64,000 nt of DNA from Giardia intestinalis (taxonomy: Eukaryota): the NCBI GenBank assembly GCA_000002435.2, contig CM018793.1; one strand, 5' to 3'. This document shows, one piece after another, positions 2,670-52,933 of this stretch. Made by a program: the position numbers and the translations under genes. The number at the start of each line of letters is the position of its first letter. The first letter of the stretch is position 1. The notes under the pieces were generated by a model, which saw nothing but the letters and a program-made list of their open reading frames with translations, was not told the origin of the DNA and searched no databases.

Positions 2670-2757
2670 TTTGTTTTCTTCCCCTGAATGGAAAATTTAC
2701 ATGTGCACAGCTGACTGGGAGAGAGTCTATGCAGCTCAGTCTAATACAAGAGACACG

Positions 2758-3552: not shown

Positions 3553-3619
3553 ATTTAGTGCGTACTAAATTTTGTTGTAGCGAAAACTCCGCGCTCTTAG
3601 TAAAAGTGAAAATGCAAAA

Positions 3620-4267
3620 ATGCAAAAAATATTGTATCTCCATTCTGCTGAAATGCTCGTGGAATCCATTCCCACTCTCAGAGTTTTCACACTAGCGGGA
3701 TCTCTTATCTTGTACCACGCTCTAGATTTTTCTCTCCACAATAGACACCATCCGCAGCCCATCAGCTTCGCTGCTTGCCTCTGTTCTACGGAGTATGTGG
3801 CAGCATTTGCATTCGCCCTCACAGAATACTATTTAGAATACTTCTTCTGCTCATGGAAGAGGTCTAAGCCACTAGTAACTATATGCTATGTGATCGGGTT
3901 AATTGGGATGGTTCTCGGTGATGGTCTGCGCAAGCTTGCTATGATGCAGAATGGAATTGGATTCACTCACAAGATAGCCACAACCCGTGAGAAAGACCAC
4001 CAACTAGTTGTCTCAGGGGTATACCGATTGACCAGACATCCCGGATACCTTGGCTGGTTCATTTGGGCCGTTTCCACCCAAGTGATGCTCGCCAATCCAC
4101 TATCAATTATAGTTTACATTTTCGTTTCCTGGAAGTTCTTCAGTGACAGAATTAGATACGAAGAAGAAACCCTCCTTGCCTTGTTCGGAGACGAGTACTT
4201 AGAGTATATGAAGCGCACGCGGTGTTACATACCGTTTGTCTCGAGACACGCAGCTACCGCCCACTGA
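3620..4267 (+). CDS. ICMT: Protein-S-isoprenylcysteine O-methyltransferase (ICMT/Ste14 family).
   Basis: The C-terminal block VVSGVYRLTRHPGYLGWFIWAVSTQVMLANPL...RYEEETLLALFGDEYLEYMKRT matches the ICMT signature (RHPxY, EE..L...FG.EY..Y). It is a multi-TM protein with a true ATG at 3620. Confidence 0.85.
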   Translation: MQKILYLHSAEMLVESIPTLRVFTLAGSLILYHALDFSLHNRHHPQPISFAACLCSTEYVAAFAFALTEYYLEYFFCSWKRSKPLVTICYVIGLIGMVLGDGLRKLAMMQNGIGFTHKIATTREKDHQLVVSGVYRLTRHPGYLGWFIWAVSTQVMLANPLSIIVYIFVSWKFFSDRIRYEEETLLALFGDEYLEYMKRTRCYIPFVSRHAATAH

Positions 4268-6797: not shown

Positions 6798-6879
6798 ATC
6801 TTACGAGATTTCTAAAAATTCGCTTCTTAAAATTGATATTGACTTACAAAGTATTAGAGTGGCAAGGACTAAAGTGGTA

Positions 6880-7386
6880 ATGCAAGGTACTGACAGCTCC
6901 GACCCTCTCTACTACACCAGCCCCGATCTGGCCATTGGAATTACCGGGTTCACCATACGAAACCCCAGCACAGGAAAAATCTACTTTAACCGCAACACAG
7001 CGTCGCCAGACGTTGGTCAAATAGAGCTCTTACCAGACGTTCCTCCCACAAACGGCATTTGCTACATCCTTCCTACAGAGTTCCTGCGCGCATCGGCCAT
7101 CGCATGTCAGATTGTGATTACTAACAGAGGAGATGAACCCATAAGCGGCATAAAGATAGTCGAAGAGCACATCCTTCAAGGAGTTCCTCTTCAGCGGTAC
7201 GACTTTGACCTCATGTTTCTTGCCCCTAGAACGCAGAATACATGGGAAACACTATATGAGCCTGAATTCAAGCGTGGACACAACTTCGAGGAGCAAGCCC
7301 TCGCGGGTCCGTGGATCATTATCACGTCGTTGTATATTAGTGACAAGCTGATGCTGCGCAATCGGGCACAGCTGAAGTTTCAGTGA
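6880..7386 (+). CDS. Hypothetical protein, 168 aa.
   Basis: The listed ORF begins with TTG at 6709, so I trimmed it to the first ATG at 6880, which has an 82-bp A/T-rich divergent spacer upstream. Family not recognised. Confidence 0.4.
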   Translation: MQGTDSSDPLYYTSPDLAIGITGFTIRNPSTGKIYFNRNTASPDVGQIELLPDVPPTNGICYILPTEFLRASAIACQIVITNRGDEPISGIKIVEEHILQGVPLQRYDFDLMFLAPRTQNTWETLYEPEFKRGHNFEEQALAGPWIIITSLYISDKLMLRNRAQLKFQ

Positions 7387-7620
7387 GACCTTGCTCTTCT
7401 GGCTTTATGAAAACACAAGAGAGGTGCAAGGCCAGAGCAGGACAACTCTTATTCTTCCACCACTTGCTTTCATCGCGTGTTTACTTGCGTTTTCGTGCGC
7501 TTATTACTGGGATTAGCCATCATCAAGCATTTGCTCTCCAACAGCAACATGTACTACTTCTTCTATCCTAATTTGTCTTCCCTATTTTCACTTTTCAAAG
7601 CTCTCAGTACGCATTGCCTG

Positions 7621-8673
7621 CTACTTTATGAAATTGTAATTCTTAAAGTCTTTACCTACTTTAATAAGAAAGGTTGTAGAATCCTCAGAGCAGCTTACCA
7701 AATCCTCACCATTGGGATTAAATGCAAGGTCGTGGACAGGCCCGACATGTGCCTGGATGCTGCCTAACTTCACGTCCTGGGCTATGTCAATAAAGAACAG
7801 CTTAAACGTGTTCTCAATATGTGTTGTTTGAGTGACTATTTTGCTGTCCATCCCTCCGGCGTAGACCATGAGATTGGGAATGTTTGGGTGGATGGCGCAA
7901 CAGTGCACCGGGTACTCTGTGCTGACCTTCTTAAGAACCGTTAGTGTCTTGGCCCCCAGTATGACTATCTTCTTATCACTGCAGCAGATAGTAAACATGG
8001 AGTTGTTATACAGTTGTATGCTCATTATCTGACCGTTCCCGACGACTATTGGGTCCTTCATCTTTGAGTACGGCTCTAGGGTCTCTGCATCAAAGAGCTG
8101 CACTACACCAGACGCGAACCCCACGACCAGGTAGTCGTCCAGGGGGGACAAAGCTATGCAAGTGACGTCTTCGGACATGCACTTTATCTTGGTGCACTTC
8201 ACATCCTTTGGGTCGCTGGCATCAAGGACAAGGATACCAGCCTTGGACTTCATGATCAACCGTCCTCCAACAAACAGGCGCCTTCCATCTCTGCTATACT
8301 GGATGGCGCTGTAGGCTGTGATTTCCGGGAATTTATAGGTCCTGATGTATGCGCGGTCACTGGTGACCTTGTAGAGAGCAATGAAGTCGAGAACATGGGA
8401 CACTGCAACGTACTCACCGTCAGAGCTCACTGTGAAGTCAGACACAGCTATACCTTGGTCAGATGCTATTGTTCCAGGGTCTCCTTCCGAGCCGATCGGT
8501 CCAAAAGTCTGGACAAACTGCCCGTTTGTACTGGTCCACATGTGTGTATAGCCGTCTGTGGACCCGGTGATGATATAATCTCCGTCGGGAGTGTATCGTA
8601 GCTTTGTAATAGGGCGTGTATGCCCATGGAGACTGAAGACATGGGCTGTGTAGACGTTGGCGACCTTTCCCAT
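7621..8673 (-). CDS. EIF3I: Translation initiation factor eIF3 subunit I (WD40, TRIP-1 family).
   Basis: WD-repeat protein. The C-terminal segment VYAGGMDSKIVTQTTHIENTFKLFFIDIAQDVKLGSIQAHVGPVHDLAFNPNGEDLVSCSEDSTTFLI parallels eIF3i ([25 protein letters not shown]...[30 protein letters not shown]). The listed start at 8688 is TTG, so I trimmed to ATG 8673, which has AATAAATTAAAAACT upstream. Confidence 0.8.
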   Translation of the reverse strand: MGKVANVYTAHVFSLHGHTRPITKLRYTPDGDYIITGSTDGYTHMWTSTNGQFVQTFGPIGSEGDPGTIASDQGIAVSDFTVSSDGEYVAVSHVLDFIALYKVTSDRAYIRTYKFPEITAYSAIQYSRDGRRLFVGGRLIMKSKAGILVLDASDPKDVKCTKIKCMSEDVTCIALSPLDDYLVVGFASGVVQLFDAETLEPYSKMKDPIVVGNGQIMSIQLYNNSMFTICCSDKKIVILGAKTLTVLKKVSTEYPVHCCAIHPNIPNLMVYAGGMDSKIVTQTTHIENTFKLFFIDIAQDVKLGSIQAHVGPVHDLAFNPNGEDLVSCSEDSTTFLIKVGKDFKNYNFIK

Positions 8674-20004: not shown

Positions 20005-21959
20005 GTGGCGAACGTACACATACAGAACTCCTTCGTCTCGCAGTGTGTCACGTCCTGTGAAAAAGCGGGTGGTCGCTGCCCCTCCTGCGGGCCTCCACAG
20101 GCACGCATCACAACAGCCTCGGTGCGGAGTGCAGCAAGCACAAGGATGGCTGTGCCCAGAATAGGTGCGCCCCTGGCCAAGTCCGATGAACGGAACGCGC
20201 ACGGCGTACTCCGAGAGCGCTTCCTCTGTGTGCATCCTGGACAGCACCGCGGCTCGGTCCACTGCGTCGAGTGCAGGGGCTCGGGCTCGGAGGCGAACGC
20301 GTTCCTGCTCTACGAGGTGGACACGAGTGCAGCGTGGTAGGGGCGGGCGGTGTGTGCTCGTCAACCCGAACAGCGGTGCGACCGAGGGATCTCACAGCTG
20401 CAGCAGCGGCTACTGCACGTCATGCCACAAGACGCATCTGTTCTGTAAGTATGGATGCTACAGCCGACACAGTTCGACTGGATTTGCCATATGCGCGGGG
20501 GCGAACCAGTGCGAGCTAGACAACGTGACGATCTGCACAGAATGCGTGAACACGTCGCATGCACCCAAGAATGGGGGGTGCACCTTCGTCGGGGAAAGCG
20601 CCTCCAGAAGCCTGTTTTCTGACTGCACGAAAGATGCAAGCAGAGGGTTGTGCACAGGTTGCTCCAGCACCGGGAAGTCTTTCTTGTTCTATGGTGGTTG
20701 CTATAACAGAGACTCCCACGTTGGTTCAAAGCTCTGTCTGGAAGCAGCGGGCGGAGTGTGTAAGCAGTGGCGTAGCAATTTTAACTTCACCTTCTCTAAA
20801 GCTGAGGGGGCCGACCGATACCTGTGCGGTGATACCAGCAGTGGTGTGCGTGGCTGCGCTACATGCGGGTACAATAACGGTGTGACGTGTACGCGGTGCT
20901 CGACGGGATACCTCGGGGTGGATGGGAGGTCCTGCAGTGAAGGCTGCAGCGGAGACACTCGGGGGGGCGTGTACGGAGGTAACAGAAGGGAGCGAATCAA
21001 CTGAAGTGTCGTGTCGATGCGTCTGCAAGCCGACGTTCTACAACAGCTCCGGAACGTGCATATCATGTACGGACTCGTGCGCTGTCTGCAAGGATGGCAC
21101 ACTAACCGGCTGCCAGCAGTGCAGCCCTGGCAAGATCCTAAGCTTCTCGATCGTCTCCAGCGAGAGTGCAGACTGTGTCGATCAGTGTTCTGTTAGTAGT
21201 GAGTGTGCAGAATGCGGCATCACCATCGACGGCAGCAGGTACTGCACGCGCTGCAAGGACGCAAGCACGTATCCGTTCAACGGGGTGTGTATTCTGAACA
21301 CACAAAGGGACGCGTACTGCACCAGCAAGGCAAATGGCGTCTGCACCACCTGTTCCTCAGGCGCCTTCCTGATGAACGGGGGCTGCTACACAACGGAGCA
21401 CTATCCGGGAAGCACTATCTGTGGTAAGCAGTCAAACGGAAAGTGTGAGAAGACCAAGGAGGGGTACGGGATATCGCCCGATGGAAAGCTGCTGGAGTGC
21501 GATCCGACATGTCTGGCGTGCACCGCCCCTGGCCCCGGCCGCTGCACCAGGTGCCCCTCTGGAGCGCTCCTGAAGAGGGCCTCGGGTGCCGCCACCGGGA
21601 GCTGCGTCGGCCTTAATGCCTGTGTAGACGGGTACTATGCAGACGGAGACGCGTGCCTGCCCTGCGCCACTCCGGGGTGCAAGACCTGCGGGCATGCCTC
21701 CTTCTGCACAGAGTGCGCGGGGGAGCTCTTCGTGAGCCTGGACGGGCGGTCGTGCCTGGGGGAGTGCACCGGGAACAAGGTGGTGGGAGAGGTGCCCGGC
21801 GGCGTGCGGAGGTGCTGGTGCGAACGGGGCTTCTACAGCCATGGTCCAAGGGTCGCACGAATAAACCCACCTCCCCGCTCCTGTGTGAAGACGGGGACGA
21901 ACCAGGCCCGCTCGACCTCGGTGACCGGTAGTCCTTCCTCTCCCCAGTCGGTCTGAGCT
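20005..21959 (+). pseudogene. Variant-specific surface protein (VSP) pseudogene or fragment. It is split across three reading frames and has no signal peptide, no TM and no CRGKA tail.
   Basis: VSP-type CXXC and GGCY motifs continue through ORFs 20005-20340 (frame 1: CVTSCEKAGGRCPSCG), 20165-21004 (frame 2: KSFLFYGGCYNRDSH...) and 20922-21956 (frame 0: AFLMNGGCYTTEHY...CTRCPSG...). The last frame stops at ...STSVTGSPSSPQSV* before any TM segment. The block is very GC-rich. Confidence 0.7.
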
Positions 21960-24595: not shown

Positions 24596-27500
24596 TTAGA
24601 TTTCCATTAGGCCATAATGCCGAAGAGGGTAGCCATACGGTGCACTTGCAGCCTCGCAGAATAAGTTGCGAAGAACTGCAGGCAGGGACTGAACACTGAA
24701 CCGTTCTTCGTCACCAGACGCAAAAACAAGTAGATCTGCTTGAATTGTCGCCCAGATCATCTCACAGGCAAACGATGGATACGTATAGACGTCCCACTGA
24801 ACCTTGCTGTGTGAGTATGAGTACGCCCGTGGACCAGGCTTGATGGTGAAGAGCCTCTTCAGCTTTTTCTCCATAAGCGTTGTTCTCCATTGCCGCTTGT
24901 CTCCTTGATCTATGTATACTTCTGTGAGTTGCTCATATACTACGGTTTCTGCCTCAGATAAAGTAGAGGGGAGAGAGTCGCCAATGGATAAGCACTGAAT
25001 GCTGTGTTCTATGGCATGCTTCATGGCCTTCACCCCCAGTGTCTTTGCCACATCTTGATCGTCAGGGTCAATCTGTGATGGGGCAGTATCAAGGACAGAG
25101 ATAAGAAGGGCGCTAAACGAAGATGATCCATACGCTGCTCCGAAAGGCGAGACCTGATCTACATTGAAAGGAGATGCCCCAATAGAGGCTAGTGGGATTG
25201 GTTCGAAGCTGGTGGTGTCTACACTGGCCAGCTGAGTTTGTGAAGGAGGCGGTGAAAATGAGGGGAGCTCTTGACGCGCAGAGCCCTCTTCAAGAGCTCT
25301 ATTATGGGCATCAAGACGACTCTGGGCGATGGAGCCCAGGTCAACGGAAACGTCTTCTGCGTCCAGGCCTACTTCAGCCAGCTCATCCGCAATGTCATTG
25401 GCAATGTTATGCGGAGCCATTGGGGTATTGTTCCCTATAGCACTCTTGTTGCTGCGACCGTGAGCTACAGGCGTTTCAGTTGGCTGCTTTCTAGAAGGAG
25501 ATTCCATAGCCATTTCTTCAACAGCAACTGCAGAGTGAGACATGGCTGTTAGATTGCTGGACGCCAGCGGTGAAAATACAAAGGCCCGTTGTAGAATATA
25601 GGCTCCGTTAAATAGTTGGTATATATCTGCTTCTCTAATGTCCCAACCACGCGGAGAGATACAGTGGAATAAAAAGATAGAGGCCTTGAGCACTTCTCGT
25701 CTACGTGTGTCCGTAGTTGCGCTTTCCTCTAGATCCTTGTAGTGCGTCATCAAACACGCATTGATAGTCTCCTGATTTGAATTTTTGTATACATTTCCAG
25801 AAAAGCAATGATCATAGCATTTGGCTAACTTAGTAATCACTTGGCACAACTTATCATCAGTAGACGATATGGCAAAGACAAATATGAACTTGAGCAATAG
25901 GTCCACAAGACCCCGTCGAGAGTCAGGATGGGAAAAGACTCCAGCCAAGCTGTAATCCTGATAGGTATAGTCGTCAGTCATAAGAGAAAACTTATACCTT
26001 GGTAGCCAGTACCACTTCCTTGTAGATGCTGAAGCAGATTTTCTGCCACTAGCGACCGGATTGACAGCAACATCTGCGTGTTCCAGGGCTTCTGCATTAG
26101 GAGATGTAACGCTTGCCTGCATCTCAGTGGCAGCCTTCTTCCCTGGTTTGGCCTTACGCTCACGGCGAGTTGCTGCGTTATAAAGCTCTTCCAGGCTTAC
26201 TCTCTCCACGGTATGGCACGAGGTTTCCTTTGTTTCCAGCGCCGTAACGTTGCACAGGACACCAGTTGCAAAGGATAGCATCCCCATAGAGCGAAGGATG
26301 AGCATGTTTTTACCGCTGAGAAGGACGACAACATCACCCGGTCGCATGCCGCCATACCCAATAGGTGTAAGGAGAGGAAGAATGGTCCCCTGAGTACCCA
26401 ATGCCCCAGAGTCCAGCTTCGATCTAAACAGGCAGCAAAAGCTGGCTTCTGAACTCATGTCCTGGCTCCATCCACTGAGGCTTTGCAGTGCGGAGTCATA
26501 GAACATAATGTCATCTGTATCCTCTGGCTTCAGTCGACCATCGTTGTCGAGAATTGTGGATACAACGGTCTTCATATAGTCCCCAAAGGTGAGATTAATA
26601 TCAACAGAGCTGTAGAAGAACTGAGAATACCGAGGGTAAGATGGTACCAAAATCGGTGTGCCTCCAATTGGAAGCGGGGGGATGTTGAGTAGTGATGAGA
26701 GTACAAGGACGAGCATGTTCCACGGAATTAGTATGGGCAGCAAGTAGAGCATGACCTTTCTCCAACCCGTGCGTGGCTTAGAAAATGCAAACTTGGCCAC
26801 AGAGATATACATGTTGATACCTACAGTGAGCCGGTGGAGGAACCCGTCCGCAACTGCTCCCACAAGCGCAGAGACAGCTATTGCTGGAAGATTTGTAGGC
26901 CGCAGTTCTAAAGGCAGAGAGCTGAAGTTGTTAGATGATGACCCTAGCGCAAGTTGTACTATCGTTAGGATGAGACCACCGAGTAGGAGAGATACATAGA
27001 GAGCTGCTGGATCTGTGCATGCAGACACAGTAAGATGAAGCAGCGACAGGGCGTGGATTGTGCCAGCCTCTAGGTTTAGGGTCATTAAGCTGGACTCTTT
27101 GGTAGACTGTGTATATGAAGAAATCGAGACAATGCCGTCAAAAATTCCTAGAATAAGAATAGCTACTCCGGAAATATGATTAATTATGGCGTATATGCGA
27201 CTCTGTATACGTCGCTTACGCGCAAACAAAGACCCCAGCTGAAACAGCAAGTAACAGCCAGCGCCAATCCCGAGTGGAACAAGAAACTTGATATGAGAGG
27301 ACCACATAGTAATGACCTGAGATGGCAACGGGCTAATGTGTATATCAGCTAGCAAAAGCAAACAGAAGATTGTAATTGATGCAACTGCCGCTAGAATTGC
27401 AAAGGCAAACCGAATGAAGATGCGCGCTGTATAGCTCTTAAGCGTACCATACTTAACATTCATGAGGACAAAGAAGACGCCTGGAACAAAGGAGAGAAAA

Positions 27501-28336
27501 TTAGTACCGACTATTGCTAACAATACACTCGGAAATAGAAGGATAGACCAACCGCCAAAAGTGGGCAGCTTGACGATCCTACAGATTAAATCAATGACAT
27601 ACAAGAGCAGGCAGCGGAACTGTGGGAGGACCCCGAAAAAAGAGAGGGGAGGAATAAGTGCATAGGCCACATTAAACCACTTTATATCTTGAGCAACAAG
27701 CTCACGAGGTTTATCACTTAGAAATATTATGTTGGGAATAAAGATGCAAAAGGTATAGAACAGATTGGTGAAGGAGCATTCAAACAGCTGTGCTGGTGTG
27801 AAAACATTCATGGCAGAGTCCAAACCCCTGAGTGCCGGGACCCATAGCATTGCGACAAAGACACCGACCCAACGCTCTGCTACACCGAAGTAAACAGCGA
27901 TATGGAAGATCACCGCTAGAGACAGTGCGAGAAGCTGAATGGCTGCCTGCACGCACGGACCCTTGTTGACAGGAAACAAGACAGCCCCGATAGCCCCTGC
28001 TGTCGGACACCGCCTTGTGGAGCTGGCACCACCTCTGGAGCCCACTTTGGAAGATCTCTTATAGCGTTCTCCCGCTCGAGCCAAAAGTCCGTATGTCACG
28101 GAGAGACAGAGACTCAAGACGAGCGACGTCACGAGCGACCATATCCTTCTTGGAAACTGACTAAACACGACTGCCACAACCAGGGGGATAAGATTTATGA
28201 GAGATGCGATAGCATAGACTGCACCACCAAAATTGCCCGTACTTCTGATGGTGATCCCAAAGAGTAAGTGGTCCAGAAACTTTTGGCAAAAGAGTGCCCC
28301 GCTGCCTTCATCGAAGACAGGGTAATTTCCGGCCAT
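24596..28336 (-). CDS. Large polytopic membrane protein (1246 aa): about 14-20 predicted TM helices in the N-terminal ~650 aa, then a ~600-aa soluble C-terminal region. Family unknown.
   Basis: ATG at 28336. A long run of hydrophobic segments is followed by a hydrophilic C-terminal half. There is no in-window interruption. Confidence 0.65.
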   Translation of the reverse strand: MAGNYPVFDEGSGALFCQKFLDHLLFGITIRSTGNFGGAVYAIASLINLIPLVVAVVFSQFPRRIWSLVTSLVLSLCLSVTYGLLARAGERYKRSSKVGSRGGASSTRRCPTAGAIGAVLFPVNKGPCVQAAIQLLALSLAVIFHIAVYFGVAERWVGVFVAMLWVPALRGLDSAMNVFTPAQLFECSFTNLFYTFCIFIPNIIFLSDKPRELVAQDIKWFNVAYALIPPLSFFGVLPQFRCLLLYVIDLICRIVKLPTFGGWSILLFPSVLLAIVGTNFLSFVPGVFFVLMNVKYGTLKSYTARIFIRFAFAILAAVASITIFCLLLLADIHISPLPSQVITMWSSHIKFLVPLGIGAGCYLLFQLGSLFARKRRIQSRIYAIINHISGVAILILGIFDGIVSISSYTQSTKESSLMTLNLEAGTIHALSLLHLTVSACTDPAALYVSLLLGGLILTIVQLALGSSSNNFSSLPLELRPTNLPAIAVSALVGAVADGFLHRLTVGINMYISVAKFAFSKPRTGWRKVMLYLLPILIPWNMLVLVLSSLLNIPPLPIGGTPILVPSYPRYSQFFYSSVDINLTFGDYMKTVVSTILDNDGRLKPEDTDDIMFYDSALQSLSGWSQDMSSEASFCCLFRSKLDSGALGTQGTILPLLTPIGYGGMRPGDVVVLLSGKNMLILRSMGMLSFATGVLCNVTALETKETSCHTVERVSLEELYNAATRRERKAKPGKKAATEMQASVTSPNAEALEHADVAVNPVASGRKSASASTRKWYWLPRYKFSLMTDDYTYQDYSLAGVFSHPDSRRGLVDLLLKFIFVFAISSTDDKLCQVITKLAKCYDHCFSGNVYKNSNQETINACLMTHYKDLEESATTDTRRREVLKASIFLFHCISPRGWDIREADIYQLFNGAYILQRAFVFSPLASSNLTAMSHSAVAVEEMAMESPSRKQPTETPVAHGRSNKSAIGNNTPMAPHNIANDIADELAEVGLDAEDVSVDLGSIAQSRLDAHNRALEEGSARQELPSFSPPPSQTQLASVDTTSFEPIPLASIGASPFNVDQVSPFGAAYGSSSFSALLISVLDTAPSQIDPDDQDVAKTLGVKAMKHAIEHSIQCLSIGDSLPSTLSEAETVVYEQLTEVYIDQGDKRQWRTTLMEKKLKRLFTIKPGPRAYSYSHSKVQWDVYTYPSFACEMIWATIQADLLVFASGDEERFSVQSLPAVLRNLFCEAASAPYGYPLRHYGLMEI

Positions 28337-28514
28337 TTTTAGATTGACACACAGTACCTATACGTCCTCATAGACTATTTACTCGTCAGTTCTGGTTTGA
28401 TAAAAGACTCCTACGCTTGATAAGAGCTATAGAAGGGAGAACGATGTGGGACTGAGAGGCTTTGGATCGGAGTGACTCAGCCCTGGTAAAGAGTGTGAAC
28501 GTACCAGTAGAGCG

Positions 28515-43676: not shown

Positions 43677-45713
43677 ATGAACAACCAGACGGACCGTCAA
43701 AAGCGAATTGCCGAACGCAGGAAGAACATTCGTGCAAAGTTAGCAGAGCTAACACAAGACATGGATCTAACCGGGGAGAACGCAGGGGTGGTGATTTCGT
43801 CATCGGTTGACCAAATAGCAGTATCAAACGCAGAGAAAGTTGTGTATGACACACTAGCGGGGTTTAGGGACAAGACTAGCGGTTTCATGGCCCACGTCGA
43901 TGGCCTACGGACACGAGCTGACAAAGAAGCCTTAGTAATCTTTAACACAGACAAAGAGAGCGCCCTTATCAGGCGGCAGACGCTTGCCAATGAAAAGACG
44001 GCTTGCAATAAGATTGATGCCTCTTTCAGTATGCGGTGGTCGACACTCATGGAAAAGGATACCCCAGAGGAGCTTGCAGCTGGAATTCTAGAGCTTCGTC
44101 GATACACGTTGGAAATGTTGGAGTCCAAAGATAGAGTGGTGAGCGCATTCGAGGAGTATCTAGCCACAGTGGATGAGGATTATATCCGTCTAATTCGAGA
44201 ACAATCGAAAGAGATTGATGAAGTCATTACGTATATGCGAAAGGTACTGGGAGAACTAAAGAATTACTCCCTCGCCAAAATAAAGGAGTGCGAAGACGCA
44301 TTCAACGAAGATCGTGCTGCTTTTATTAAAGAACGCGAGGCAGGACTCGACAAGCTGCGCGACGAGATAACTGCAATAGAAAATGCGTCTCTTGATGCGC
44401 GCACTAAATTGGCAGAGGAATATAACGACAACGTGGCCTTACAGGTTCTGCAGGACTACGAGGAATATACCTCTCTAAAACGGCGCTTAGAGGCAGAGGG
44501 CGTTGCTCTTCGGCAGCAGCTAGAAGAGATGCGCTCTGTCTATCAATTGAACACAGACAAGCTGGAATATAACTACCGCTTGCTTGCTGCAAGGGACGTA
44601 GAGAGCCAGAATCTCATGGTCCAGCAAAAGAAAAAGATCTCAAAGCTTCAAAATCAGCTTACCGCCCTCATTGCGCGGCACACAACCATAGATAGTCAAC
44701 TCAGGGAGGAGAATCTAGAGCTATCAACATCTTACAAGCGAATGTCCAACTTATATTGCGACCTCCAGGCCAAGTTCAAGTTGTTTGAACGAGTAGACAC
44801 CCAAAAGTTTCGTGAACTCTGGGCATACCATGAGCGTCGCATAGCCGAGTCCCTCAGGGACCTTCTGTTAGCAGAGCAGATCATCAACGAGTCTGTGCTC
44901 TGTGTTGAGGCCAAGAAAGGGATTAATGAAAGCTCAATAGAGTATTCTGTGATGGTGATGCTTAAGAAGTTACAGCATGCAGCTGGAGTCGCTGAGTATG
45001 ACGACACCATGACCGTTACCAAGGAAAATTCAATCCTGGATATTACCCGCTCAATTGATCCCATTGCATCGTGCGCCTTGGGGCCTGTTGCAGCCTCGCG
45101 ACTTCTGACAGAGCTAGCGGCTGAAGCAAGCTTCCTTGCAAGTGATGACCTCTTAAAGATTATGGCACCAGGCGAGGAACTGACACCCAAGATGCGTACC
45201 GATGCACTCCTCTCCACCTTGGGAATACGAAATGCAAGTGAGCTTGACTTGTTGTTCACACACGTTACTGTTAACGGAAAGGGATTTGAACTATTGCCAC
45301 GAGACAAGATCGTGAACTCTCTGCGTGCATTTGCAGCTGAGGTGGTTGTTAAACGAGAGGCTGGGCGGCAAGGTGAGACCACTACAGCAGGAAGCTCAAA
45401 GAAGGGCGGCATCTGGAGCAACGCGTCCCTCAAGACCTTCTGGAGAGAGCTCGCCAACCTTATATCTCCGGAGAAACAGGTCCTTTGGAAAGCTTTGGAC
45501 GACTCCCTGATTCAGTACAAAGAGATCCTGCAGGCCCGGACAGACCTAGTGACGCATAATGATCAGCTAGCAGCTCAGAATGAAGAGTTGCGGAACCTCC
45601 TTCAACAATACATCTCTCAGGAGCGGCAAGCACTGAGTGTGGGCGGAACGATGGTTGTTCCTGAGACAAACAACACACAATTTGTCGGTAACGCTCAGCC
45701 AGCGCATGCTTGA
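43677..45713 (+). CDS. DRC1: Dynein regulatory complex subunit 1 (DRC1/CCDC164; NYD-SP28 family), a component of the axonemal nexin-DRC.
   Basis: The N-terminal RQKRIAERRKNIRAKLAEL parallels DRC1 QERIQARRLRIAARLEARR. The central YQLNTDKLEYNYRLLAARDVESQNLMVQQKKKISKLQNQLTALIARHTTIDSQLREENLELSTSYKRM...FRELWAYHERRIAESL parallels human [68 protein letters not shown]...FWEIWLMNEEEAKDL. The C-terminal KQVLWKALDDSLIQYKEILQARTDLVTHNDQLAAQNEELRNLLQQY parallels [46 protein letters not shown]. Confidence 0.8.
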   Translation: MNNQTDRQKRIAERRKNIRAKLAELTQDMDLTGENAGVVISSSVDQIAVSNAEKVVYDTLAGFRDKTSGFMAHVDGLRTRADKEALVIFNTDKESALIRRQTLANEKTACNKIDASFSMRWSTLMEKDTPEELAAGILELRRYTLEMLESKDRVVSAFEEYLATVDEDYIRLIREQSKEIDEVITYMRKVLGELKNYSLAKIKECEDAFNEDRAAFIKEREAGLDKLRDEITAIENASLDARTKLAEEYNDNVALQVLQDYEEYTSLKRRLEAEGVALRQQLEEMRSVYQLNTDKLEYNYRLLAARDVESQNLMVQQKKKISKLQNQLTALIARHTTIDSQLREENLELSTSYKRMSNLYCDLQAKFKLFERVDTQKFRELWAYHERRIAESLRDLLLAEQIINESVLCVEAKKGINESSIEYSVMVMLKKLQHAAGVAEYDDTMTVTKENSILDITRSIDPIASCALGPVAASRLLTELAAEASFLASDDLLKIMAPGEELTPKMRTDALLSTLGIRNASELDLLFTHVTVNGKGFELLPRDKIVNSLRAFAAEVVVKREAGRQGETTTAGSSKKGGIWSNASLKTFWRELANLISPEKQVLWKALDDSLIQYKEILQARTDLVTHNDQLAAQNEELRNLLQQYISQERQALSVGGTMVVPETNNTQFVGNAQPAHA

Positions 45714-45754: not shown

Positions 45755-46243
45755 CTAGACGAAGTAGTCGACGGCAAATGACCACTTTCCGGTGACGTTA
45801 TCAAAGGAAATGAATCGGGCGCCCATTTCCAGGGTTCTCTGCTCTACCTGCGTCTGAAGGAAGGATTCTTGCGGCCCGGGCAGGAAAAACTCGATGCGGA
45901 GAAGTGTAATAATCGCGTGCTTATTGAGCTTAGTGCCCCGCGGCGGTGCATTACCATTGGGGTAGACCTCGCAGCCGCCCTTCTCCAGCACCAGATCCTT
46001 GGTAAAGTCCACGCCAGATATGTCAGTTTCACCAGACCAGCATATCATTCCGTACTCATTTGACACCATGAAGTTGTTAACACGTTGCAGCTCGGTAAGA
46101 GACAATTTGCGCAGAAGTTCTGCAGAGGGATTGTAGCGATATCTATTGTCGAGGATGGGCCTTCCAGTAGGCACGGCTCGTGGACTATACACGCATTCAG
46201 AATCCATTCGAGCGAAGATATTGCTAGTGGCTAGAGGGGCCAT
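45755..46243 (-). CDS. Stand-alone Nup98/Nup145N-type autoproteolytic (APD, Nucleoporin2) domain protein, 162 aa, with no FG-repeat region.
   Basis: NPSAELLRKLSLTELQRVNNFMVSNEYGMICWSGETDISGVDFTKDLVLEKGGCEVYPNG...LNKHAIITLLRI...MGARFISFDNVTGKWSFAVDYFV* follows the Nup98 APD consensus (...L.K....L..V..F.V.R.GYG.I.F.G..DL..LDLD.IV.I....V.VYPD...KPP.G.GLN.PA.ITL..V.P....YE..LK....GAEFVSYDP.TG.W.FKV.HF|S). The ORF terminates one residue after the Phe equivalent to the autocleavage P1 site. A stop lies in frame 2 codons upstream of the ATG, so this is a free-standing gene. Confidence 0.75.
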   Translation of the reverse strand: MAPLATSNIFARMDSECVYSPRAVPTGRPILDNRYRYNPSAELLRKLSLTELQRVNNFMVSNEYGMICWSGETDISGVDFTKDLVLEKGGCEVYPNGNAPPRGTKLNKHAIITLLRIEFFLPGPQESFLQTQVEQRTLEMGARFISFDNVTGKWSFAVDYFV

Positions 46244-46256
46244 CCGAGCTTAAAAA
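46244..46256. promoter_or_regulatory. A 13-bp spacer (ccgagcttaaaaa) shared by the divergent APD-only and FG-repeat genes.
   Basis: Both genes start at an ATG, and an in-frame TAA lies immediately upstream of the minus-strand ATG. Confidence 0.4.
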
Positions 46257-47957
46257 ATGTATGGACAACAGTCCAATGGAGCACAGGGCTTTGGCCTGAA
46301 TTTTTTCAACCAGGGACAACAACCTACGCAGCAGAACCCTTTTCAAAACACACAGGGGAACTCGCTAAGCTCGACTTTTGGGAACGCGTTCTCAACGTCT
46401 ACCACGAATCAATTTTTGGGCAACAAACTGAATACGGGCCAAGGCAACGTGTTTGGCCAACCGCAGAATCAATTCACTACATCTAGTAGTAACTTTCTTT
46501 CGACACCTCAGGTAGGGGGGTTTAACAGCTCAATGAACAAGCTTTCCACAGGACCCGGGCAATCGTCCTTTGGAGGGTTTGGAACATCTTTTGGACAAAC
46601 TTATACAGGCACTACACAGCAAAGCAATTCATTTGGGACATTGGGCAGCCAGACAACCTCAATGGGCACTGGGATGTTTAATCAGCAACAAAATAACTTA
46701 TTTAGTGGGCCAATGGTTAACAACCAAGGATCCATGGGGACCACCATGGGATTTGGAAATGCTGTGGGCCAAATTTCAAATCAGAATGGAAATACCTGCA
46801 TTTATAATACGGCCAGCAACACCAACGCCGATGTAGTGTGTATCCAAATTATCGATAAGACAGATTTTGTTTACGGGTTGATTGATGGTACCGTTGCCAT
46901 AGGATCCACAACTGCCCCACAGGCGCCTATTCAGCAATTCAAGCTGTCGAGCCCAATTCTTTCTTTGGCGGTCAATAATAACAAGGAGATCTTTACTGGG
47001 ACAATGAACGGCCTGTATGTAATTCAGCAGGGCAGCCAGCCCGTGCAAATTGGCACCTATAGTGGCCCAGTCTTCCAGATAGCTACAATTGGCAAGTACA
47101 TCTTTCATAGTGAGATGGTGCTTACCCAGGCTGGGCCGAAGCGTACGATCCAGCAGAGCAAGAACTCCTGGAGTGCCCACGTGAATACCGGCAACCAAGA
47201 GAACCTCCCTATAGCGTATACGATTAAGGTAGGAATGTACGATGGAACTTACAAGCCGGAGCTAGATGTCGCTGAGGCAGCGTGTAGCGGGCACTTCTTC
47301 TTGGTGTCCACTGGAGCGACCACTGGAGGATCGCTTAGCTGCGTACTTATGGTCCCGAACATTAACAATGAGAGGCCGTTTATCGTCTACAATATTAAGC
47401 AGGGAGGAGTAGGCATAAGTTCAAGAATGAGCATTGCTGAAGATACATCCATTAGTGTGAAGCTCAGTACTATTGCTGGAAATAAGCGCCTAAGTTCTGG
47501 AGTAATTGGGTGTGGCTACGATAGAGTAGGGCTTAAGGCCATGGTAGTTACTAATGACAGATGCATGCTGGTGTATGACCTTAACAACAAACTGGTCAAT
47601 CAGAAACAGCTTCAATTCCCGATCTTACATGCATGTTATTCAGATCATCACAGGACGTTTCTTTTCACCGCTGGAACTGAAATAGCATACTATCAAACGG
47701 TTGGAAACAACACTGGCGAGTGGGGCAAGATCCCGGGTACGTCTTTTGGAGAGATATGCAGCTTCAGTATCGATGATCAGAAACTTGCTATAGCCGTCGG
47801 CAGCGCCAGTGCATTGTATCAAGGGACGCCGAGTCAAGGGGCGTCAGGTCAAGTCCGGGTCTCCATTGCTCTTGTGAACCTTCCGTCAGTTCGTCAGGGA
47901 GTATACCCCAACACTTATCATCTGATAAGCAACAAGACTCCTACCAATGTCATTTAA
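46257..47957 (+). CDS. FG-repeat protein (candidate FG-nucleoporin): an N-terminal ~190-aa Q/N/G-rich region with repeated FG and GFG motifs, then a ~370-aa beta-rich (propeller-like) domain.
   Basis: ATG at 46257 is preceded by CTTAAAAAATG. FG motifs include GFGLNFF, STFGNAFS, NVFGQP, SSFGGFGTSFGQ, NSFGTLG and GFGNAVGQ. The gene lies 13 bp from, and divergent to, the APD-only gene. Confidence 0.65.
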   Translation: MYGQQSNGAQGFGLNFFNQGQQPTQQNPFQNTQGNSLSSTFGNAFSTSTTNQFLGNKLNTGQGNVFGQPQNQFTTSSSNFLSTPQVGGFNSSMNKLSTGPGQSSFGGFGTSFGQTYTGTTQQSNSFGTLGSQTTSMGTGMFNQQQNNLFSGPMVNNQGSMGTTMGFGNAVGQISNQNGNTCIYNTASNTNADVVCIQIIDKTDFVYGLIDGTVAIGSTTAPQAPIQQFKLSSPILSLAVNNNKEIFTGTMNGLYVIQQGSQPVQIGTYSGPVFQIATIGKYIFHSEMVLTQAGPKRTIQQSKNSWSAHVNTGNQENLPIAYTIKVGMYDGTYKPELDVAEAACSGHFFLVSTGATTGGSLSCVLMVPNINNERPFIVYNIKQGGVGISSRMSIAEDTSISVKLSTIAGNKRLSSGVIGCGYDRVGLKAMVVTNDRCMLVYDLNNKLVNQKQLQFPILHACYSDHHRTFLFTAGTEIAYYQTVGNNTGEWGKIPGTSFGEICSFSIDDQKLAIAVGSASALYQGTPSQGASGQVRVSIALVNLPSVRQGVYPNTYHLISNKTPTNVI

Positions 47958-48417: not shown

Positions 48418-50334
48418 ATGGCCAGTGTAAGCCCCACCAGCTCTCCGCTCGAGAAACCTGAGGGAGAGGCCATCGTAGACGCCTTGGGTCCTGTACTTTA
48501 CCAAGGAGTGGGTGCAAGCATCTATGCACACATCACCCGCCCTGGCAAAGTTATTAAAGAGGTGTCGATTTACGGTCTTCAGGAAGCAAAGCTTAAAGCT
48601 TTGAGGATGTCGTTCCAGGACCTTGCGCGCATCCATCACCCAAACATCGTGCACTCCGAGTTCCCCATAGAACACGATGGATACTTATACGTGCAGATGG
48701 ACCGCTACTGCACATCTCTTGAGACTATGATACGTACTTCCAGGCTAAGAAGACTGCAATTTTCGAAGTCACAAATACTTACAATTGTTACCCAAGTCTC
48801 TGCCGCTCTCGCATACCTCCACAGTGCGCATAAGGACAGAGAATCTCTGTCAGCTATAGTACACGGAAGAGTTCAGCCTGCTAATATCCTTGTCAACGAA
48901 GATGGAAGACAGTTTGCTCTCTCCAATGCGGGCGTTCATAGAAGCAGGCAGAAGTTTAGCAATACAGTATACACGGCGCCAGAGATATTACTAGATGCTG
49001 ACCTTACGCCTGCAGCTGATATGTGGAGTCTTGGGGTCATTCTGTATGAGCTCGCAACAAAGAACAGACCTGAGTTTATAAGTGGCTGTATGCTCGAATG
49101 TGGCTTCGCTGAAGGATGGGTACCAGACTTAAGTAGTGTCGAGGATGTATTACTTAATAATATCATCCGACGCCTACTTATCTTTGATCCAATCAGTAGA
49201 ATGTCTTCATCTGAGCTATCATCCATTCTACAGGATAGCCAATCACTAGCTGATATAGAGAACTACTTTCGCCTAGATATTCTTGAAAGAGACGTCGTGC
49301 AACTGGCTTTGGAAATATCCATGCTGCATAGTGTTATAGAAAAAAGGCAGCTCCTACCAAGAAGCGATGGCCTCACGACATTAATGTGTGCAGCTCGCTC
49401 CGGAAATGTTGACGTCATAAAACAATTAATCGATACTGGTGAGGGAGTCCGTGCTCAAGATGCAGCGGGGTTAACAGCACTAATGCATGCAACTGTTAAA
49501 AAGCAGTATGATGCTATCAAGGTCCTTGTTGCATTTGAACATGGTATCTATGATAATGGTGGTCAAACAGCCTTGATGCACGCTGCTCAGATGAACGATC
49601 CTCAGGCCATTCACCTATTGGCACAATACGAGGCAGGGATGAAAACCAAGAGACTGAACTCCTTGGCAGGAATTTCTGTCAAGTCTAGAACAGCACTCAT
49701 GGGTGCCGCGGCACAAGGATTCACACGAGCAGTTGAAGCGCTTCTTCAGTACGAAGGGGGACTTCGTGATGAGCTTCATCAGACAGCGCTCATGTATGCT
49801 GCTAGCCAAAATCATCTTGAAGCGGTGCAGCTCCTAGCTTCTCGTGAGGGAGGGTTACAAGATAGTATGAGCCAAACAGCTCTCATCTTGGCTGTACAAC
49901 GTGGAAACGTGAATGTTGTTCCCTTCTTGCTTTGCGAAGTGGGCATGAAGAATAACATGGGCTATAGTGCGCTTATGATTGCAGCGAACGAAGGCCAGTT
50001 TGACATCGTGCAGCTTCTTGTTGAGCATGAAAAGGGGATGCGGAGCTTGACGCAAAGCACTGCGCTTATCAGTGCTGCATACAATAACCACTCTCAGATT
50101 GTGGAACTCCTTATACCCTACGAGTCTCGAATGCAGAATCGTCATGGTCTTACAGCACTGATGGAGGCAGCTAAGCACGGGTACATTGATGTAGTAAGGA
50201 TACTTGTGGATCATGAGAAAGGAGTTAAAGATAATCTAGGGCGGACAGCGCGTACTATGGCTCTTAAGTTTGGACACTCAGAGATTGCAGACTTTCTCTC
50301 TCAATATCCAGAAGAGCAATGTACTCTCCTGTGA
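48418..50334 (+). CDS. NEK-like kinase-fold protein with a C-terminal ankyrin-repeat array. Predicted catalytically inactive (pseudokinase).
   Basis: The kinase fold is recognisable, but the catalytic loop reads AIVHGRVQPANIL in place of HRDLKPxN, and LSNAG replaces DFG. Eleven or more ankyrin repeats follow (TALMHA...V..L). ATG at 48418. Confidence 0.8.
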   Translation: MASVSPTSSPLEKPEGEAIVDALGPVLYQGVGASIYAHITRPGKVIKEVSIYGLQEAKLKALRMSFQDLARIHHPNIVHSEFPIEHDGYLYVQMDRYCTSLETMIRTSRLRRLQFSKSQILTIVTQVSAALAYLHSAHKDRESLSAIVHGRVQPANILVNEDGRQFALSNAGVHRSRQKFSNTVYTAPEILLDADLTPAADMWSLGVILYELATKNRPEFISGCMLECGFAEGWVPDLSSVEDVLLNNIIRRLLIFDPISRMSSSELSSILQDSQSLADIENYFRLDILERDVVQLALEISMLHSVIEKRQLLPRSDGLTTLMCAARSGNVDVIKQLIDTGEGVRAQDAAGLTALMHATVKKQYDAIKVLVAFEHGIYDNGGQTALMHAAQMNDPQAIHLLAQYEAGMKTKRLNSLAGISVKSRTALMGAAAQGFTRAVEALLQYEGGLRDELHQTALMYAASQNHLEAVQLLASREGGLQDSMSQTALILAVQRGNVNVVPFLLCEVGMKNNMGYSALMIAANEGQFDIVQLLVEHEKGMRSLTQSTALISAAYNNHSQIVELLIPYESRMQNRHGLTALMEAAKHGYIDVVRILVDHEKGVKDNLGRTARTMALKFGHSEIADFLSQYPEEQCTLL

Positions 50335-50758: not shown

Positions 50759-52933
50759 TCATGCCTTCCCTCTGCATATGAACCACCAGCAGAGGAAGCC
50801 CACAAGGCCAGCCACGACAACCACCACAGCGACGGAGATACCTGCTATGGCGCCTGTGCTGAGGCCGCTTCTGCTGCCCCCGCTGGGCTTGGTGGACACG
50901 CACGCCTCACCCTCCAGCCTGTAGTCGTCCCCGCACTGGCCGCACTTGTTCTCCTCGCTGCACCTGATACACCCGTCGATACTGCAGGCGATGCACTGGG
51001 AGCCGTCTGTGTTCGGCCTCTTGCCCCCCTCTGTGCAGGCGGAGCACTTGTTGTCCATATCACAGTGTGAGCATCCAACAACGGCACATGCGAAGCACCC
51101 GCTCCCAGCCAGGTTGGGCTTGTTGTTGGCGCTACACGCTGTGCACGTGGCGGGGGCCATGCCAGGAGCCTCTAGCGCTGCTGGGGCCGTGCATGCTGTG
51201 CAGCCATATACCCCCACATATGCCTTAGCGGTGCTGCCAGCCCCTATCACTGTGCCAAGGGGGTTCTCGCAGGCCAGGACAGACTGATCAGTATTGGATG
51301 CCCCCGGGACCAGAAAGTACCGGCCGTTCTCGCTGGGGGCGGTGCACCTCCCTCCCTCGGCAGTCTTGCACATGTGGCTGCCAGGAGCCTTCTGAGTACT
51401 GTAGCAGCCGCCCATGTACAGGAAGAACCCGGCAGCACACCGGGTGCAGACGCCGTTCTCGCAGGTGTTGTCACCCTTAGTTCCTGTGCAGACGCCATCG
51501 ATGGGGAACGTGGCGGGGTCTCCGCACAGCGAGCAGTACTGGGAGAACGCCCCGGCGCTGTCAACGACGGTCGCCCCGCAGGTCCCAGACGTCCCCCCGC
51601 AGGCCGTGGGGTCCTCGCAGGCCTTTGTGCACTTCACCGGATTGGTTCCCTCCTTGCGATAGTTGAGCTTACAGGAGTTGCAGGTCAACGAGCCAGCGAA
51701 GGTGCACGTTGCACACCCATCGACTCCATCTGTCGGGTTATCACAGGGGACGCATGTGCCGGGGGAAGTGCCCCCTCTCAAGAAGAACCCGGTCTTGCAG
51801 GTTTGGCATTTGGTCTTGTCAGCTTTCTCAGAGCAGGTTGCGCAGTTCTCGCCACAGGCGTCACATGTGAAGCCGCTGTTGGTGTTCTTGATGTACCCCT
51901 CCAGGCACTCTGTGCAGGTCGGCGGTGTGGCGCCAGTCCTCGAGCACTTCTTACAGCCGACGATGCCCTGGTTCTTCTTCTCTTGCTCTGTCACTGTGTC
52001 GCTGCATAGAATACACGCTGTTGCGTCGTCTTTCATGAATAGCCCACTATCGGTGGCTTTGCAGCCGTCGTCTGTCTTTTCCACGCACGTCGTCGTCCCG
52101 TCGGCAGCAGTTCTTACCAGCTTCCCGTTACAATCGGTGCACCTCGGCTTTCCCGTGGCGTCACTATATTCGCATGCCGCGCACCCAGCTATGTCAGTAG
52201 CGCAGGCCTTGCACTCGTCTGCTTTTGGGTCTGCATAGCTATCACTACCACATCCACCAGCCTCTACACACTCAGTGCCCTTCAGGAACTTCCCCCCAAG
52301 GCAGGCGGTGCACTGGGTCGGCGTAGCAGACTCACACGTCAAACAGCCGGGTCCGCATTGCACACATGCACCATCCTTCGTAGCGTACCCTCCTTGGCAT
52401 GCAGTGCACGTGGCAGCCCCTGTACCGCCACCTGGCGCCGTGCATGTGTAGCAGCCCGCCACCCCCGTGACTCCGTCTCGCGGAGTGACGTCTGAGCAAA
52501 GCACGCACTCGTTGCCAGGGGCTACTGGGCTGGCCGGGTTCTGGAATAGATACGCGGCGCCTGCCTTGCAGGTGGTGCACACCCCCTTGTCGGCCGCCGT
52601 GCAGATCTCAGACCACTGGCTCGTCTTGTAGCACCCGCCCATGAAGAGGAAGTACCCGTCCCCGCACTTCCCGTAGGCAGTATCCGAGCCCGCCAACGCG
52701 GTCCCGTCTGCCCTGGTGCACCCGGCCGCCGCGGCCTGGGGGGAGCCGGGGGGCCAGCAGAAGCCGCCGACCGGGACGCCCCCGGCCCTGCACCCGGTGC
52801 AGATCTCGGAGTACCCGACCGTCTCGCACTTATCGGTCTGGCAATTCGCGGCATGGTCTCCGTCTGGCTGACAAGGCGCCGCGAGTGTGACTGCAAGCGT
52901 GGTTCCTACACACAGCAGTGGGTGCCGCCTCAG
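50759..52933 (-). CDS. Variant-specific surface protein (VSP). The 645-aa Cys-rich ectodomain, TM and CRGKA tail are intact, but the expected initiator ATG is CTG.
   Basis: The C-terminus ...GAIAGISVAVVVVVAGLVGFLCWWFICRGKA* is followed by TGACTTAGGTAGTAAAC. There are dozens of CXXC motifs and GGCY motifs. The frame stays open upstream through a signal-peptide-like (L)RRHPLLCVGTTLAVTLAAPCQ... to a TAA at about 53051 with no in-frame ATG. The codon where Met is expected is CTG (plus-strand cag at 52931-52933), and the upstream sequence is GC-rich rather than A-rich. Confidence 0.7.
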   Translation of the reverse strand: MRRHPLLCVGTTLAVTLAAPCQPDGDHAANCQTDKCETVGYSEICTGCRAGGVPVGGFCWPPGSPQAAAAGCTRADGTALAGSDTAYGKCGDGYFLFMGGCYKTSQWSEICTAADKGVCTTCKAGAAYLFQNPASPVAPGNECVLCSDVTPRDGVTGVAGCYTCTAPGGGTGAATCTACQGGYATKDGACVQCGPGCLTCESATPTQCTACLGGKFLKGTECVEAGGCGSDSYADPKADECKACATDIAGCAACEYSDATGKPRCTDCNGKLVRTAADGTTTCVEKTDDGCKATDSGLFMKDDATACILCSDTVTEQEKKNQGIVGCKKCSRTGATPPTCTECLEGYIKNTNSGFTCDACGENCATCSEKADKTKCQTCKTGFFLRGGTSPGTCVPCDNPTDGVDGCATCTFAGSLTCNSCKLNYRKEGTNPVKCTKACEDPTACGGTSGTCGATVVDSAGAFSQYCSLCGDPATFPIDGVCTGTKGDNTCENGVCTRCAAGFFLYMGGCYSTQKAPGSHMCKTAEGGRCTAPSENGRYFLVPGASNTDQSVLACENPLGTVIGAGSTAKAYVGVYGCTACTAPAALEAPGMAPATCTACSANNKPNLAGSGCFACAVVGCSHCDMDNKCSACTEGGKRPNTDGSQCIACSIDGCIRCSEENKCGQCGDDYRLEGEACVSTKPSGGSRSGLSTGAIAGISVAVVVVVAGLVGFLCWWFICRGKA

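Follow-up and report, generated by a model that had tools for sequence, protein, structure and literature searches.

A divergent gene pair of Giardia intestinalis raises the question of whether the nucleoporin Nup98 has been split there into separately encoded parts, or whether two distinct proteins are simply encoded side by side. In the window analyzed here (a 64,000-nt stretch of contig CM018793.1), one member of the pair is a stand-alone gene for a 162-aa protein of the Nup98 family that carries the autoproteolytic domain, APD (45755..46243, minus strand), and the other is GL50803_006139 (46257..47957, plus strand), annotated as a hypothetical protein. We consider it rather probable that each gene encodes a probable nuclear-pore component of its own, one an inert APD docking adaptor and the other a lineage-specific FG-nucleoporin candidate, and that the two genes have become neighbours through ordinary genome compaction.

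The 162-aa protein exactly matches the G. intestinalis WB protein XP_001705258.1 / A8BRG2; the gene is already known through the existing annotation of that entry, “Nucleoporin autopeptidase”, and is no new discovery. Its APD (Peptidase S59 / Nucleoporin2, aa 33–161, 45761..46147, minus strand) was identified via Pfam PF04096 and PDB matches. The Pfam score of 81.1 bits (E=1.2e-22, profile positions 2–143 of 148) is well above the curated cut-off of 28.4 bits, in line with the Nup98-type domain proposed at this place in the initial annotation, and the PDB matches, Nup145N (1.3e-8), Nup116 (1.9e-8) and human Nup98 (about 3e-5), extend across the whole domain. The core motifs YxxxPS...L, G.I.W/F.g.tD, VYP....PP.G..LNK.A.iTL and F.S.D...G.W.F.V..F are present in the Giardia protein, and an exhaustive HMMER search gave 1135 family matches at E<=1e-3. 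By fold and sequence, the protein can be assigned to the Nup98/Nup145N/Nup116 family, but it is no peptidase.

The latter point follows from the C-terminus. The initial annotation held that the protein stops one residue after the Phe equivalent to P1 and hence looks pre-cleaved. The position is as described: the protein ends with ...AVDYFV*, F161 aligns with the P1 Phe of the solved Nup145N and Nup98 domains, and Tyr160-Phe161-Val162-stop (45755..45766, minus strand) occupies the place of the canonical His-Phe|Ser cleavage site. The pre-cleaved state, on the contrary, would imply a protease, but Tyr replaces the catalytic His and the Ser/Thr nucleophile is absent. The His is changed to Tyr in all lineages of the G. 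intestinalis complex and to Ala in G. muris, with C-termini of the form YF-V/A* in the five former lineages and AF-V* in the latter; in all six, the stop codon comes one residue past the Phe, and no Nup96/Nup145C moiety follows. There is nothing to cleave.

Nor is such an ending special. Among 125 aligned family domains, the HF|S/T site is retained in 66 (HF|S in 50 and HF|T in 16), and HF|end is seen in 26; 33 domains end exactly at the Phe and 18 more do so at most three residues further, making 51 of the 125, some of which are fragments. The solved chains of the Nup116 C-terminal domains also end within about three residues of the Phe. The unusual feature of the Giardia APD is the complete absence of FG repeats: the domain is preceded by some 32 non-conserved residues with no FG at all, which bears out the earlier description of a free-standing domain with neither an FG region nor Nup96.

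Canonical Nup98 proteins have FG repeats N-terminal to the APD, and a few cis- and trans-spliced genes are known in Giardia. Both facts would speak for an artefact, in which the ORF would be what is left of a longer FG-APD(-Nup96) gene broken up by misassembly, inversion, a missed intron or trans-splicing. We regard this as extremely improbable and effectively refuted already. Independently assembled genomes of five lineages of the G. intestinalis complex and of G. muris all show this gene structure, and in each the stop codon directly follows the position of Val162. The protein has 162 aa in four lineages of the complex and 150 aa in the fifth, all ending with AVDYF[V/A]*, and a G. muris-like genome encodes a stand-alone APD of 155 aa (the G. 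muris APD is 44% identical). Misassembly or inversion, which the initial annotation had set out as the alternative should relatives have a contiguous FG-APD gene, was rejected because gene order and the 13-bp gap are both preserved in a roughly 73%-identical lineage (L001). A hidden upstream exon or trans-splicing was rejected as well: the ATG is preceded, 9 nt upstream, by an in-frame TAA, and no strict Giardia 3' splice motif of the CT[AG]ACACACAG type occurs on the relevant strand anywhere in the window, the nearest loose matches (at 28345, 48162, and 59981) all being far from the gene. Substitutions relative to L001 are biased to the third codon position (32/17/71 by codon position), and codons 1–12 behave in the same coding-like manner (4/1/8). 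Across the five lineages and G. muris, the stand-alone form is conserved, and nothing points to splicing. The invariant Met13 could serve as an alternative start, and the protein of one lineage (P0032) begins there. Other short “APD-only” matches were rejected as precedents, since they come from contigs of 0.7–1.9 kb or from a transcript assembly and may be fragments.

What, then, might such a protein do? In known pores, the partners of the APD are the N-terminus of Nup96/Nup145C or the beta-propeller of Nup82/Nup88, and the C-terminal domains of the yeast proteins Nup116 and Nup100 act as docking modules. The latter domains, from Saccharomyces cerevisiae and Candida glabrata (2AIV, 3PBP, 3NF5, 7TBI), belong to the same fold family, and C. 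glabrata Nup116 is the best match of a profile of the Giardia APDs (E=1.9e-8). As in Nup116/Nup100, the Giardia domain is situated at the extreme C-terminus, with no Nup96 moiety and no autoproteolysis; unlike it, they have long N-terminal GLFG regions (with GLEBS in Nup116) and keep the His. The Nup98-Nup96 / Nup145 precursor (Peptidase S59) shares the PF04096 domain and the core motifs with the Giardia protein, which lacks the HF|S/T site, a downstream Nup96/Nup145C and any FG or GLEBS region. By analogy with Nup116/Nup100, the non-catalytic Giardia APD most likely serves as a docking domain. It would exist from birth in the post-cleavage form with the core motifs of the fold kept, the catalytic His having been lost and the P1' Ser/Thr and a Nup96 moiety to cleave off never having been present. 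Its most likely role is solely to attach to a scaffold partner, as a docking module or adaptor comparable to the C-terminal domains of Nup116 and Nup100. As an FG-less stand-alone APD has no obvious cargo to dock, analogy is the sole ground for this role. Purifying selection on the APD throughout the genus, in the absence of both FG repeats and a catalytic site, suggests that the docking function of the fold is selectable alone; the protein would separate scaffold binding from autoproteolysis and from barrier formation.

The second gene encodes, in its N-terminal part (aa 1–180, 46257..46796, plus strand), a low-charge, FG-repeat region with predicted disorder (pLDDT 19–33). The region contains eight FG dipeptides compared to 3.1 expected, a 2.6-fold excess over shuffled sequences, 18 Phe and two charged residues, none of them D or E, and is rich in G, Q, N, S, and T. 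Phe is its best-conserved residue, being invariant at 17 of 18 positions compared to 54% of all positions (p=2e-4), while the S, T, and N residues of the spacers vary. The region contains neither a GLFG motif nor an acidic motif resembling GLEBS. Such FG enrichment, with Phe conserved amid variable spacers, is what a functional FG domain would be expected to show. Uncharged Q/N/F-rich regions occur in non-pore proteins too, which is a point against the nucleoporin reading of this gene.

The rest of the protein is predicted to be a seven-bladed beta-propeller (about aa 181–541, 46797..47879, plus strand), followed by a low-confidence C-terminal tail of 25 residues and the stop codon (aa 542–566, pLDDT about 25, 47880..47957, plus strand), with no helical tail in the model. 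The AF2 model of the full-length protein, built from five sequences, is poor (pLDDT 42.6), and that of the propeller alone is usable (pLDDT 64, also from a five-sequence alignment). The model agrees with the initial annotation, which had described FG repeats joined to a beta-rich domain, and gives the fold of the latter. In Nup159/Nup214, a seven-bladed beta-propeller and FG repeats likewise reside in one polypeptide, and the propeller of Nup82/Nup88 docks the APD. Compared to these proteins, GL50803_006139 has the reverse order, FG first and propeller C-terminal, and no coiled-coil tail; it has no sequence match to them, and structurally it resembles them no more closely than it does generic WD40 propellers. 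Rae1/Gle2 and Bub3 are GLEBS-binding WD40 propellers that bind Nup98, and their scores against the Giardia propeller are inseparable from those of dozens of unrelated WD40 proteins.

The generic character of the propeller speaks for a reading in which GL50803_006139 is a non-pore WD40-type scaffold with a prion-like Q/N/F-rich region that functions elsewhere, for instance in vesicle coats, RNA granules or the cytoskeleton, while the APD protein is a relic related to the pore or has taken on a new role, and the two are adjacent by chance. In structural comparisons, WD40 proteins of ribosome biogenesis, Gbeta/RACK1, COPI, and the axoneme rank highest, nucleoporin propellers matching no better than hundreds of other WD40-type ones, and Pfam gives no WD40 match and only sub-threshold hints of Vps41/WDR35/BBS2-type propellers. 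The flanking genes also are unrelated to the pair: an axonemal NYD-SP28 protein, encoded next downstream of the APD gene on the other strand, and a kinase-ankyrin protein. Homologs of GL50803_006139 outside Giardia were found neither in word-indexed searches nor in a metagenome scan with the propeller alignment. The former, run with the full protein, the propeller alone, and the APD, matched only lineages of the G. intestinalis complex; since exhaustive HMMER recovered a 44%-identical APD in G. muris that these searches had overlooked, an FG/propeller ortholog may have escaped them in that species too. Against the non-pore reading stand the excess of FG over shuffles, the conservation of Phe amid drifting spacers, and the near-absence of charge, also typical of cohesive FG domains, and we consider this reading unlikely. 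To regard GL50803_006139 as a candidate lineage-specific FG nucleoporin is reasonable but unproven. As such, it would have a short FG domain of the cohesive type (uncharged, N/Q/S/T/G-rich), anchored directly by the seven-bladed beta-propeller, with its Phe residues under strong constraint.

The spacer between the two genes (46244..46256) is 13 bp long, CCGAGCTTAAAAA, and its A/T run abuts both start codons; the head-to-head order noted initially is syntenic in L001, with a spacer likewise of 13 bp and ending with TAAAAA. Giardia initiators are short and A/T-rich, and by analogy the spacer is presumed to be a shared initiator or promoter region. The two genes appear to be paired on contigs of other lineages too.

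This arrangement is what would make a split Nup98 conceivable, in which the two proteins, co-expressed from the shared divergent promoter, would bind non-covalently and re-create Nup98 function. Order and spacer are kept across the G. intestinalis complex, and the FG domain is uncharged and cohesive in composition, as Nup98-type GLFG domains typically are. Moreover, solved APD complexes include a beta-propeller partner, Nup82 (3PBP and 3TKN). An unconventional anchor is plausible, since the tables of Neumann et al. (PMC2951903) have no Giardia entry for Nup214, Nup62, or Nup88. Still, we consider the split improbable. The stand-alone APD of G. muris adjoins an unrelated divergent gene, encoding a 1959-aa EF-hand protein, and no FG/propeller homolog was found on this 14-kb locus; hence the split state does not travel with adjacency. 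Divergent gaps this short are nothing unusual in the Giardia genome (–7, –2, 13, and 30 bp in the window), so that 13 bp is ordinary. Outside the G. intestinalis complex, in G. muris, the pairing is not kept; the split or rearranged module proposed initially receives no positive support and is left as possible but unsupported. The FG region has no remnant homology, and the zero D/E content and missing GLFG and GLEBS-like motifs also argue against the split; the propeller is not specifically Nup82/88-like, and no canonical Nup98 contains one. In such a split, the APD would link the FG domain borne by the propeller to the scaffold of the pore. Equally improbable is the wider picture of a dismantled Giardia Nup98, with a dead FG-less APD as a free adaptor, cohesive FG material moved to GL50803_006139 and docked by the APD, and the pore minimal and rewired.

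The preferred reading of two separate pore components matters as few model eukaryotes have a nuclear pore as poorly characterised as that of Giardia. Comparative screens have yielded only a handful of nucleoporin candidates, and the tables of Neumann et al. have no Giardia entry for Nup58 either. The FG-then-propeller order of GL50803_006139 is an architecture unseen in characterised pores, and makes the protein a testable FG-nucleoporin candidate. If it proved to be situated at the nuclear rim, it would offer a starting point from which to purify and define the pore of Giardia, and one could ask whether the pores of the two nuclei are identical; if the two proteins are merely unrelated neighbours, the finding shrinks to a modest refinement of annotation.

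In the literature searched by gene ID and accession, neither the APD gene nor GL50803_006139 (GL50803_6139) is mentioned. A Giardia Nup98 candidate was listed in 2010 (Neumann et al., Table S1, PMC2951903), and this GL50803_8038 is probably the 162-aa APD gene; APD peptides searched for in the alignment files of that study gave no match, probably owing to alignment gaps or incomplete files. The same Table S1 has the Giardia accession GL50803_102890 in what appears to be the Rae1 table, and the supplement contains a sequence named “rae1_giardia”.

The minus-strand gene at 45755..46243 (XP_001705258.1/A8BRG2, annotated as "Nucleoporin autopeptidase") encodes a 162-aa protein consisting of a Nup98-type autoproteolytic domain (APD). 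Its assignment to the family holds, with a score of 81.1 bits for Pfam PF04096 (E = 1.2e-22, aa 33–161) against a cut-off of 28.4 bits. The domain aligns over its full length with the solved domains of Nup145N, Nup116 and Nup98 (best E 1.3e-8), and the best match for a profile of Giardia APD sequences is C. glabrata Nup116 (1.9e-8). Three proteins encoded round the locus match RefSeq entries of Giardia intestinalis WB (ATCC 50803) exactly.

In the alignment, F161 corresponds to the P1 Phe of the canonical HF|S cleavage site, and the solved chain 5cww_A has its last residue at the same position. The residue before F161 is Tyr, not His, and the protein stops one residue past the Phe (Val or Ala). 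The N-O acyl shift is the defining step of S59 autoproteolysis; since the His is replaced and the chain ends one residue past the Phe, this shift would, as judged from the sequence, be impossible in the Giardia APD, and there is nothing to cleave. The initial description of the domain as "pre-cleaved" is thus correct as to its end, one residue after the P1-equivalent Phe, and fails as to autocleavage. Alignment of the best 150 of 1135 hits from an exhaustive HMMER search yielded 125 domains with a residue at the site: HF|S is found in 50, HF|T in 16, and HF immediately followed by the protein end in 26, while YF|V/A or AF|V is seen only in Giardia sequences. The protein ends exactly at the Phe in 33 of these 125 domains and at most three residues beyond it in 18 more, though both counts include some fragmentary gene models. 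Ending at the Phe is common in the family, and in the yeast Nup116 C-terminal domain it is the natural state, solved chains stopping within approximately three residues of the aligned position.

Outside Giardia, the top APD match (E = 1.4e-23) is a 656-aa JGI metagenome protein. Its Gly/Met-rich N-terminus has one GLFG-type motif (GGLFGQ) and is followed by two tandem APD copies, both ending in VENF|G in place of HF|S: a duplicated, apparently non-canonical APD of a eukaryote.

The free-standing, FG-less state noted initially recurs in other lineages. The APD protein has 162 aa in four lineages of the G. intestinalis complex (72–100% identity) and 150 aa in one, and all five end in AVDYF[V/A]. 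The exhaustive search also identified a 155-aa protein, 44% identical and ending in EVDAFV, on a 19-kb contig (L002), where its neighbours share 90%-identity clusters with Giardia muris TNJ26175.1 and TNJ26178.1. As both the G. intestinalis complex and this G. muris-like contig have it, the FG-less, His-less, Phe-terminated form is genus-wide in Giardia. An artefact or a hidden exon is effectively excluded by an in-frame TAA 9 nt upstream of the APD ATG, the lack of a Giardia-type 3' splice motif near the APD start in a motif scan of the window, the coding-like codons 1–12 and the same form in other lineages. Third-position-biased substitution, compared with the locus of a ~73%-identical Giardia lineage (L001), is observed in codons 1–12 and in the remaining codons alike. 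Very probably, the gene encodes a real protein of the APD fold that is under selection, non-catalytic and devoid of FG repeats. Other short "APD-only" database hits were rejected as precedents, coming from contigs of 0.7–1.9 kb or a transcript assembly.

The true start could be Met13 (codons 1–13, 46208-46243(-)), because all five lineages have this Met and the protein of one of them, 150 aa long, begins with it; the product would then measure 150 aa and the spacer 49 bp. Codons 1–12 are coding-like despite this alternative, with 4/1/8 substitutions at the three codon positions. The sequence in the window that comes nearest to the 3' consensus of Giardia introns (CTRACACACAG), TGACACACAG at 28345-28354(+), lies just outside the start of a minus-strand gene (24596..28336, 1246 aa) with no obvious plus-strand exon downstream, and may be a chance match.

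Thirteen base pairs (CCGAGCTTAAAAA) separate the APD ATG from that of a divergent gene at 46257..47957(+), encoding a 566-aa FG-repeat and beta-propeller protein (XP_001705257.1/A8BRG1, "hypothetical protein GL50803_006139"). Unrelated genes flank the pair, one (43677..45713(+)) for an axonemal NYD-SP28 protein of the dynein regulatory complex and the other (48418..50334(+)) for a kinase-ankyrin protein. The head-to-head placement reported initially is confirmed, and the order of all four genes and the 13-bp gap are identical in L001, whose spacer keeps the TAAAAA adjoining the FG/propeller ATG. From this pairing a split or rearranged Nup98-like module had been suggested. However, on L002 the APD gene (8001-8468(+)) lies 135 bp from another divergent partner (1986-7865(-)), whose 1959-aa product, a large propeller-containing protein with a faint Beta-prop_HPS5 match, is unrelated in sequence to GL50803_006139; its G. 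muris cluster representative is named "EF-hand domain-containing" in UniRef. Nothing resembling the FG/propeller gene is found on the 14-kb G. muris locus. Moreover, divergent gaps in a greedy gene map of the single 64-kb window are –7, –2, 13, 30, 67 bp and upward. The adjacency and the tiny spacer are therefore ordinary in this genome and not conserved with the stand-alone state, and the pairing cannot carry the inference of a split Nup98. It is unlikely that the two proteins bind each other and together replace Nup98.

The FG repeats ascribed to the neighbour are present. Residues 1–180 are predicted to be disordered and are made up largely of G (17%), Q (15%), N (14%), S (13%), T (13%) and F (10%); the only charged residues are two Lys. 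Eight FG motifs are observed versus 3.1 expected from shuffles (at least eight in 13 of 5000), with no literal GLFG or FxFG in this region. Of the 18 Phe in this region, 17 are invariant among the five lineages, versus 54% of the FG region overall (Fisher p = 2e-4), and the S, T and N spacers vary (22–40% invariant); Phe kept amid drifting spacers is the pattern that a working FG domain is expected to show. We take this uncharged region to be of the cohesive class. It also contains eight N-x-F motifs (46257-46796(+); e.g., NQF, NVF, NAF, NLF), which in our view resemble NIFN-type repeats in the micronuclear Nup98 of Tetrahymena; the likeness could be relevant, given that Giardia has two nuclei. 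Whether GL50803_006139 is an FG nucleoporin seems evenly balanced, the basis being composition and Phe conservation only. No homologs outside the G. intestinalis complex were found in word-indexed searches and a metagenome scan; absence elsewhere is not established, because the word-indexed searches missed the G. muris APD too. By analogy with Nup116 and Nup100, and with the APD–Nup96 and APD–Nup82/88 complexes whose structures are solved, the APD protein would somewhat more plausibly than not serve as a docking or adaptor subunit at the pore.

The presence of an APD in Giardia is already known, since Neumann et al., 2010 (PMC2951903) give a Nup98 candidate, GL50803_8038, in their Table S1, together with Giardia candidates for Nup35, Nup54, Rae1, Sec13, Nup107 and Nup155. 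GL50803_8038 is probably the APD gene described here; no second Giardia APD is seen among the best HMMER hits. In the literature searched, no paper names either gene ID or accession or treats the architecture, and both the FG-less, His-less, genus-wide stand-alone APD and the FG-plus-propeller candidate beside its gene are undocumented there.

The NYD-SP28 gene (43677-45713(+)) is named inconsistently, "Sperm tail domain-containing protein" in RefSeq versus "Dynein regulatory complex protein 1" in UniRef (other assemblages). Two VSP (PF03302) genes, 20922-21956(+) and 50759-52642(-), coincide with GC-rich patches of the window (0.61–0.62 versus ~0.48 in the rest).
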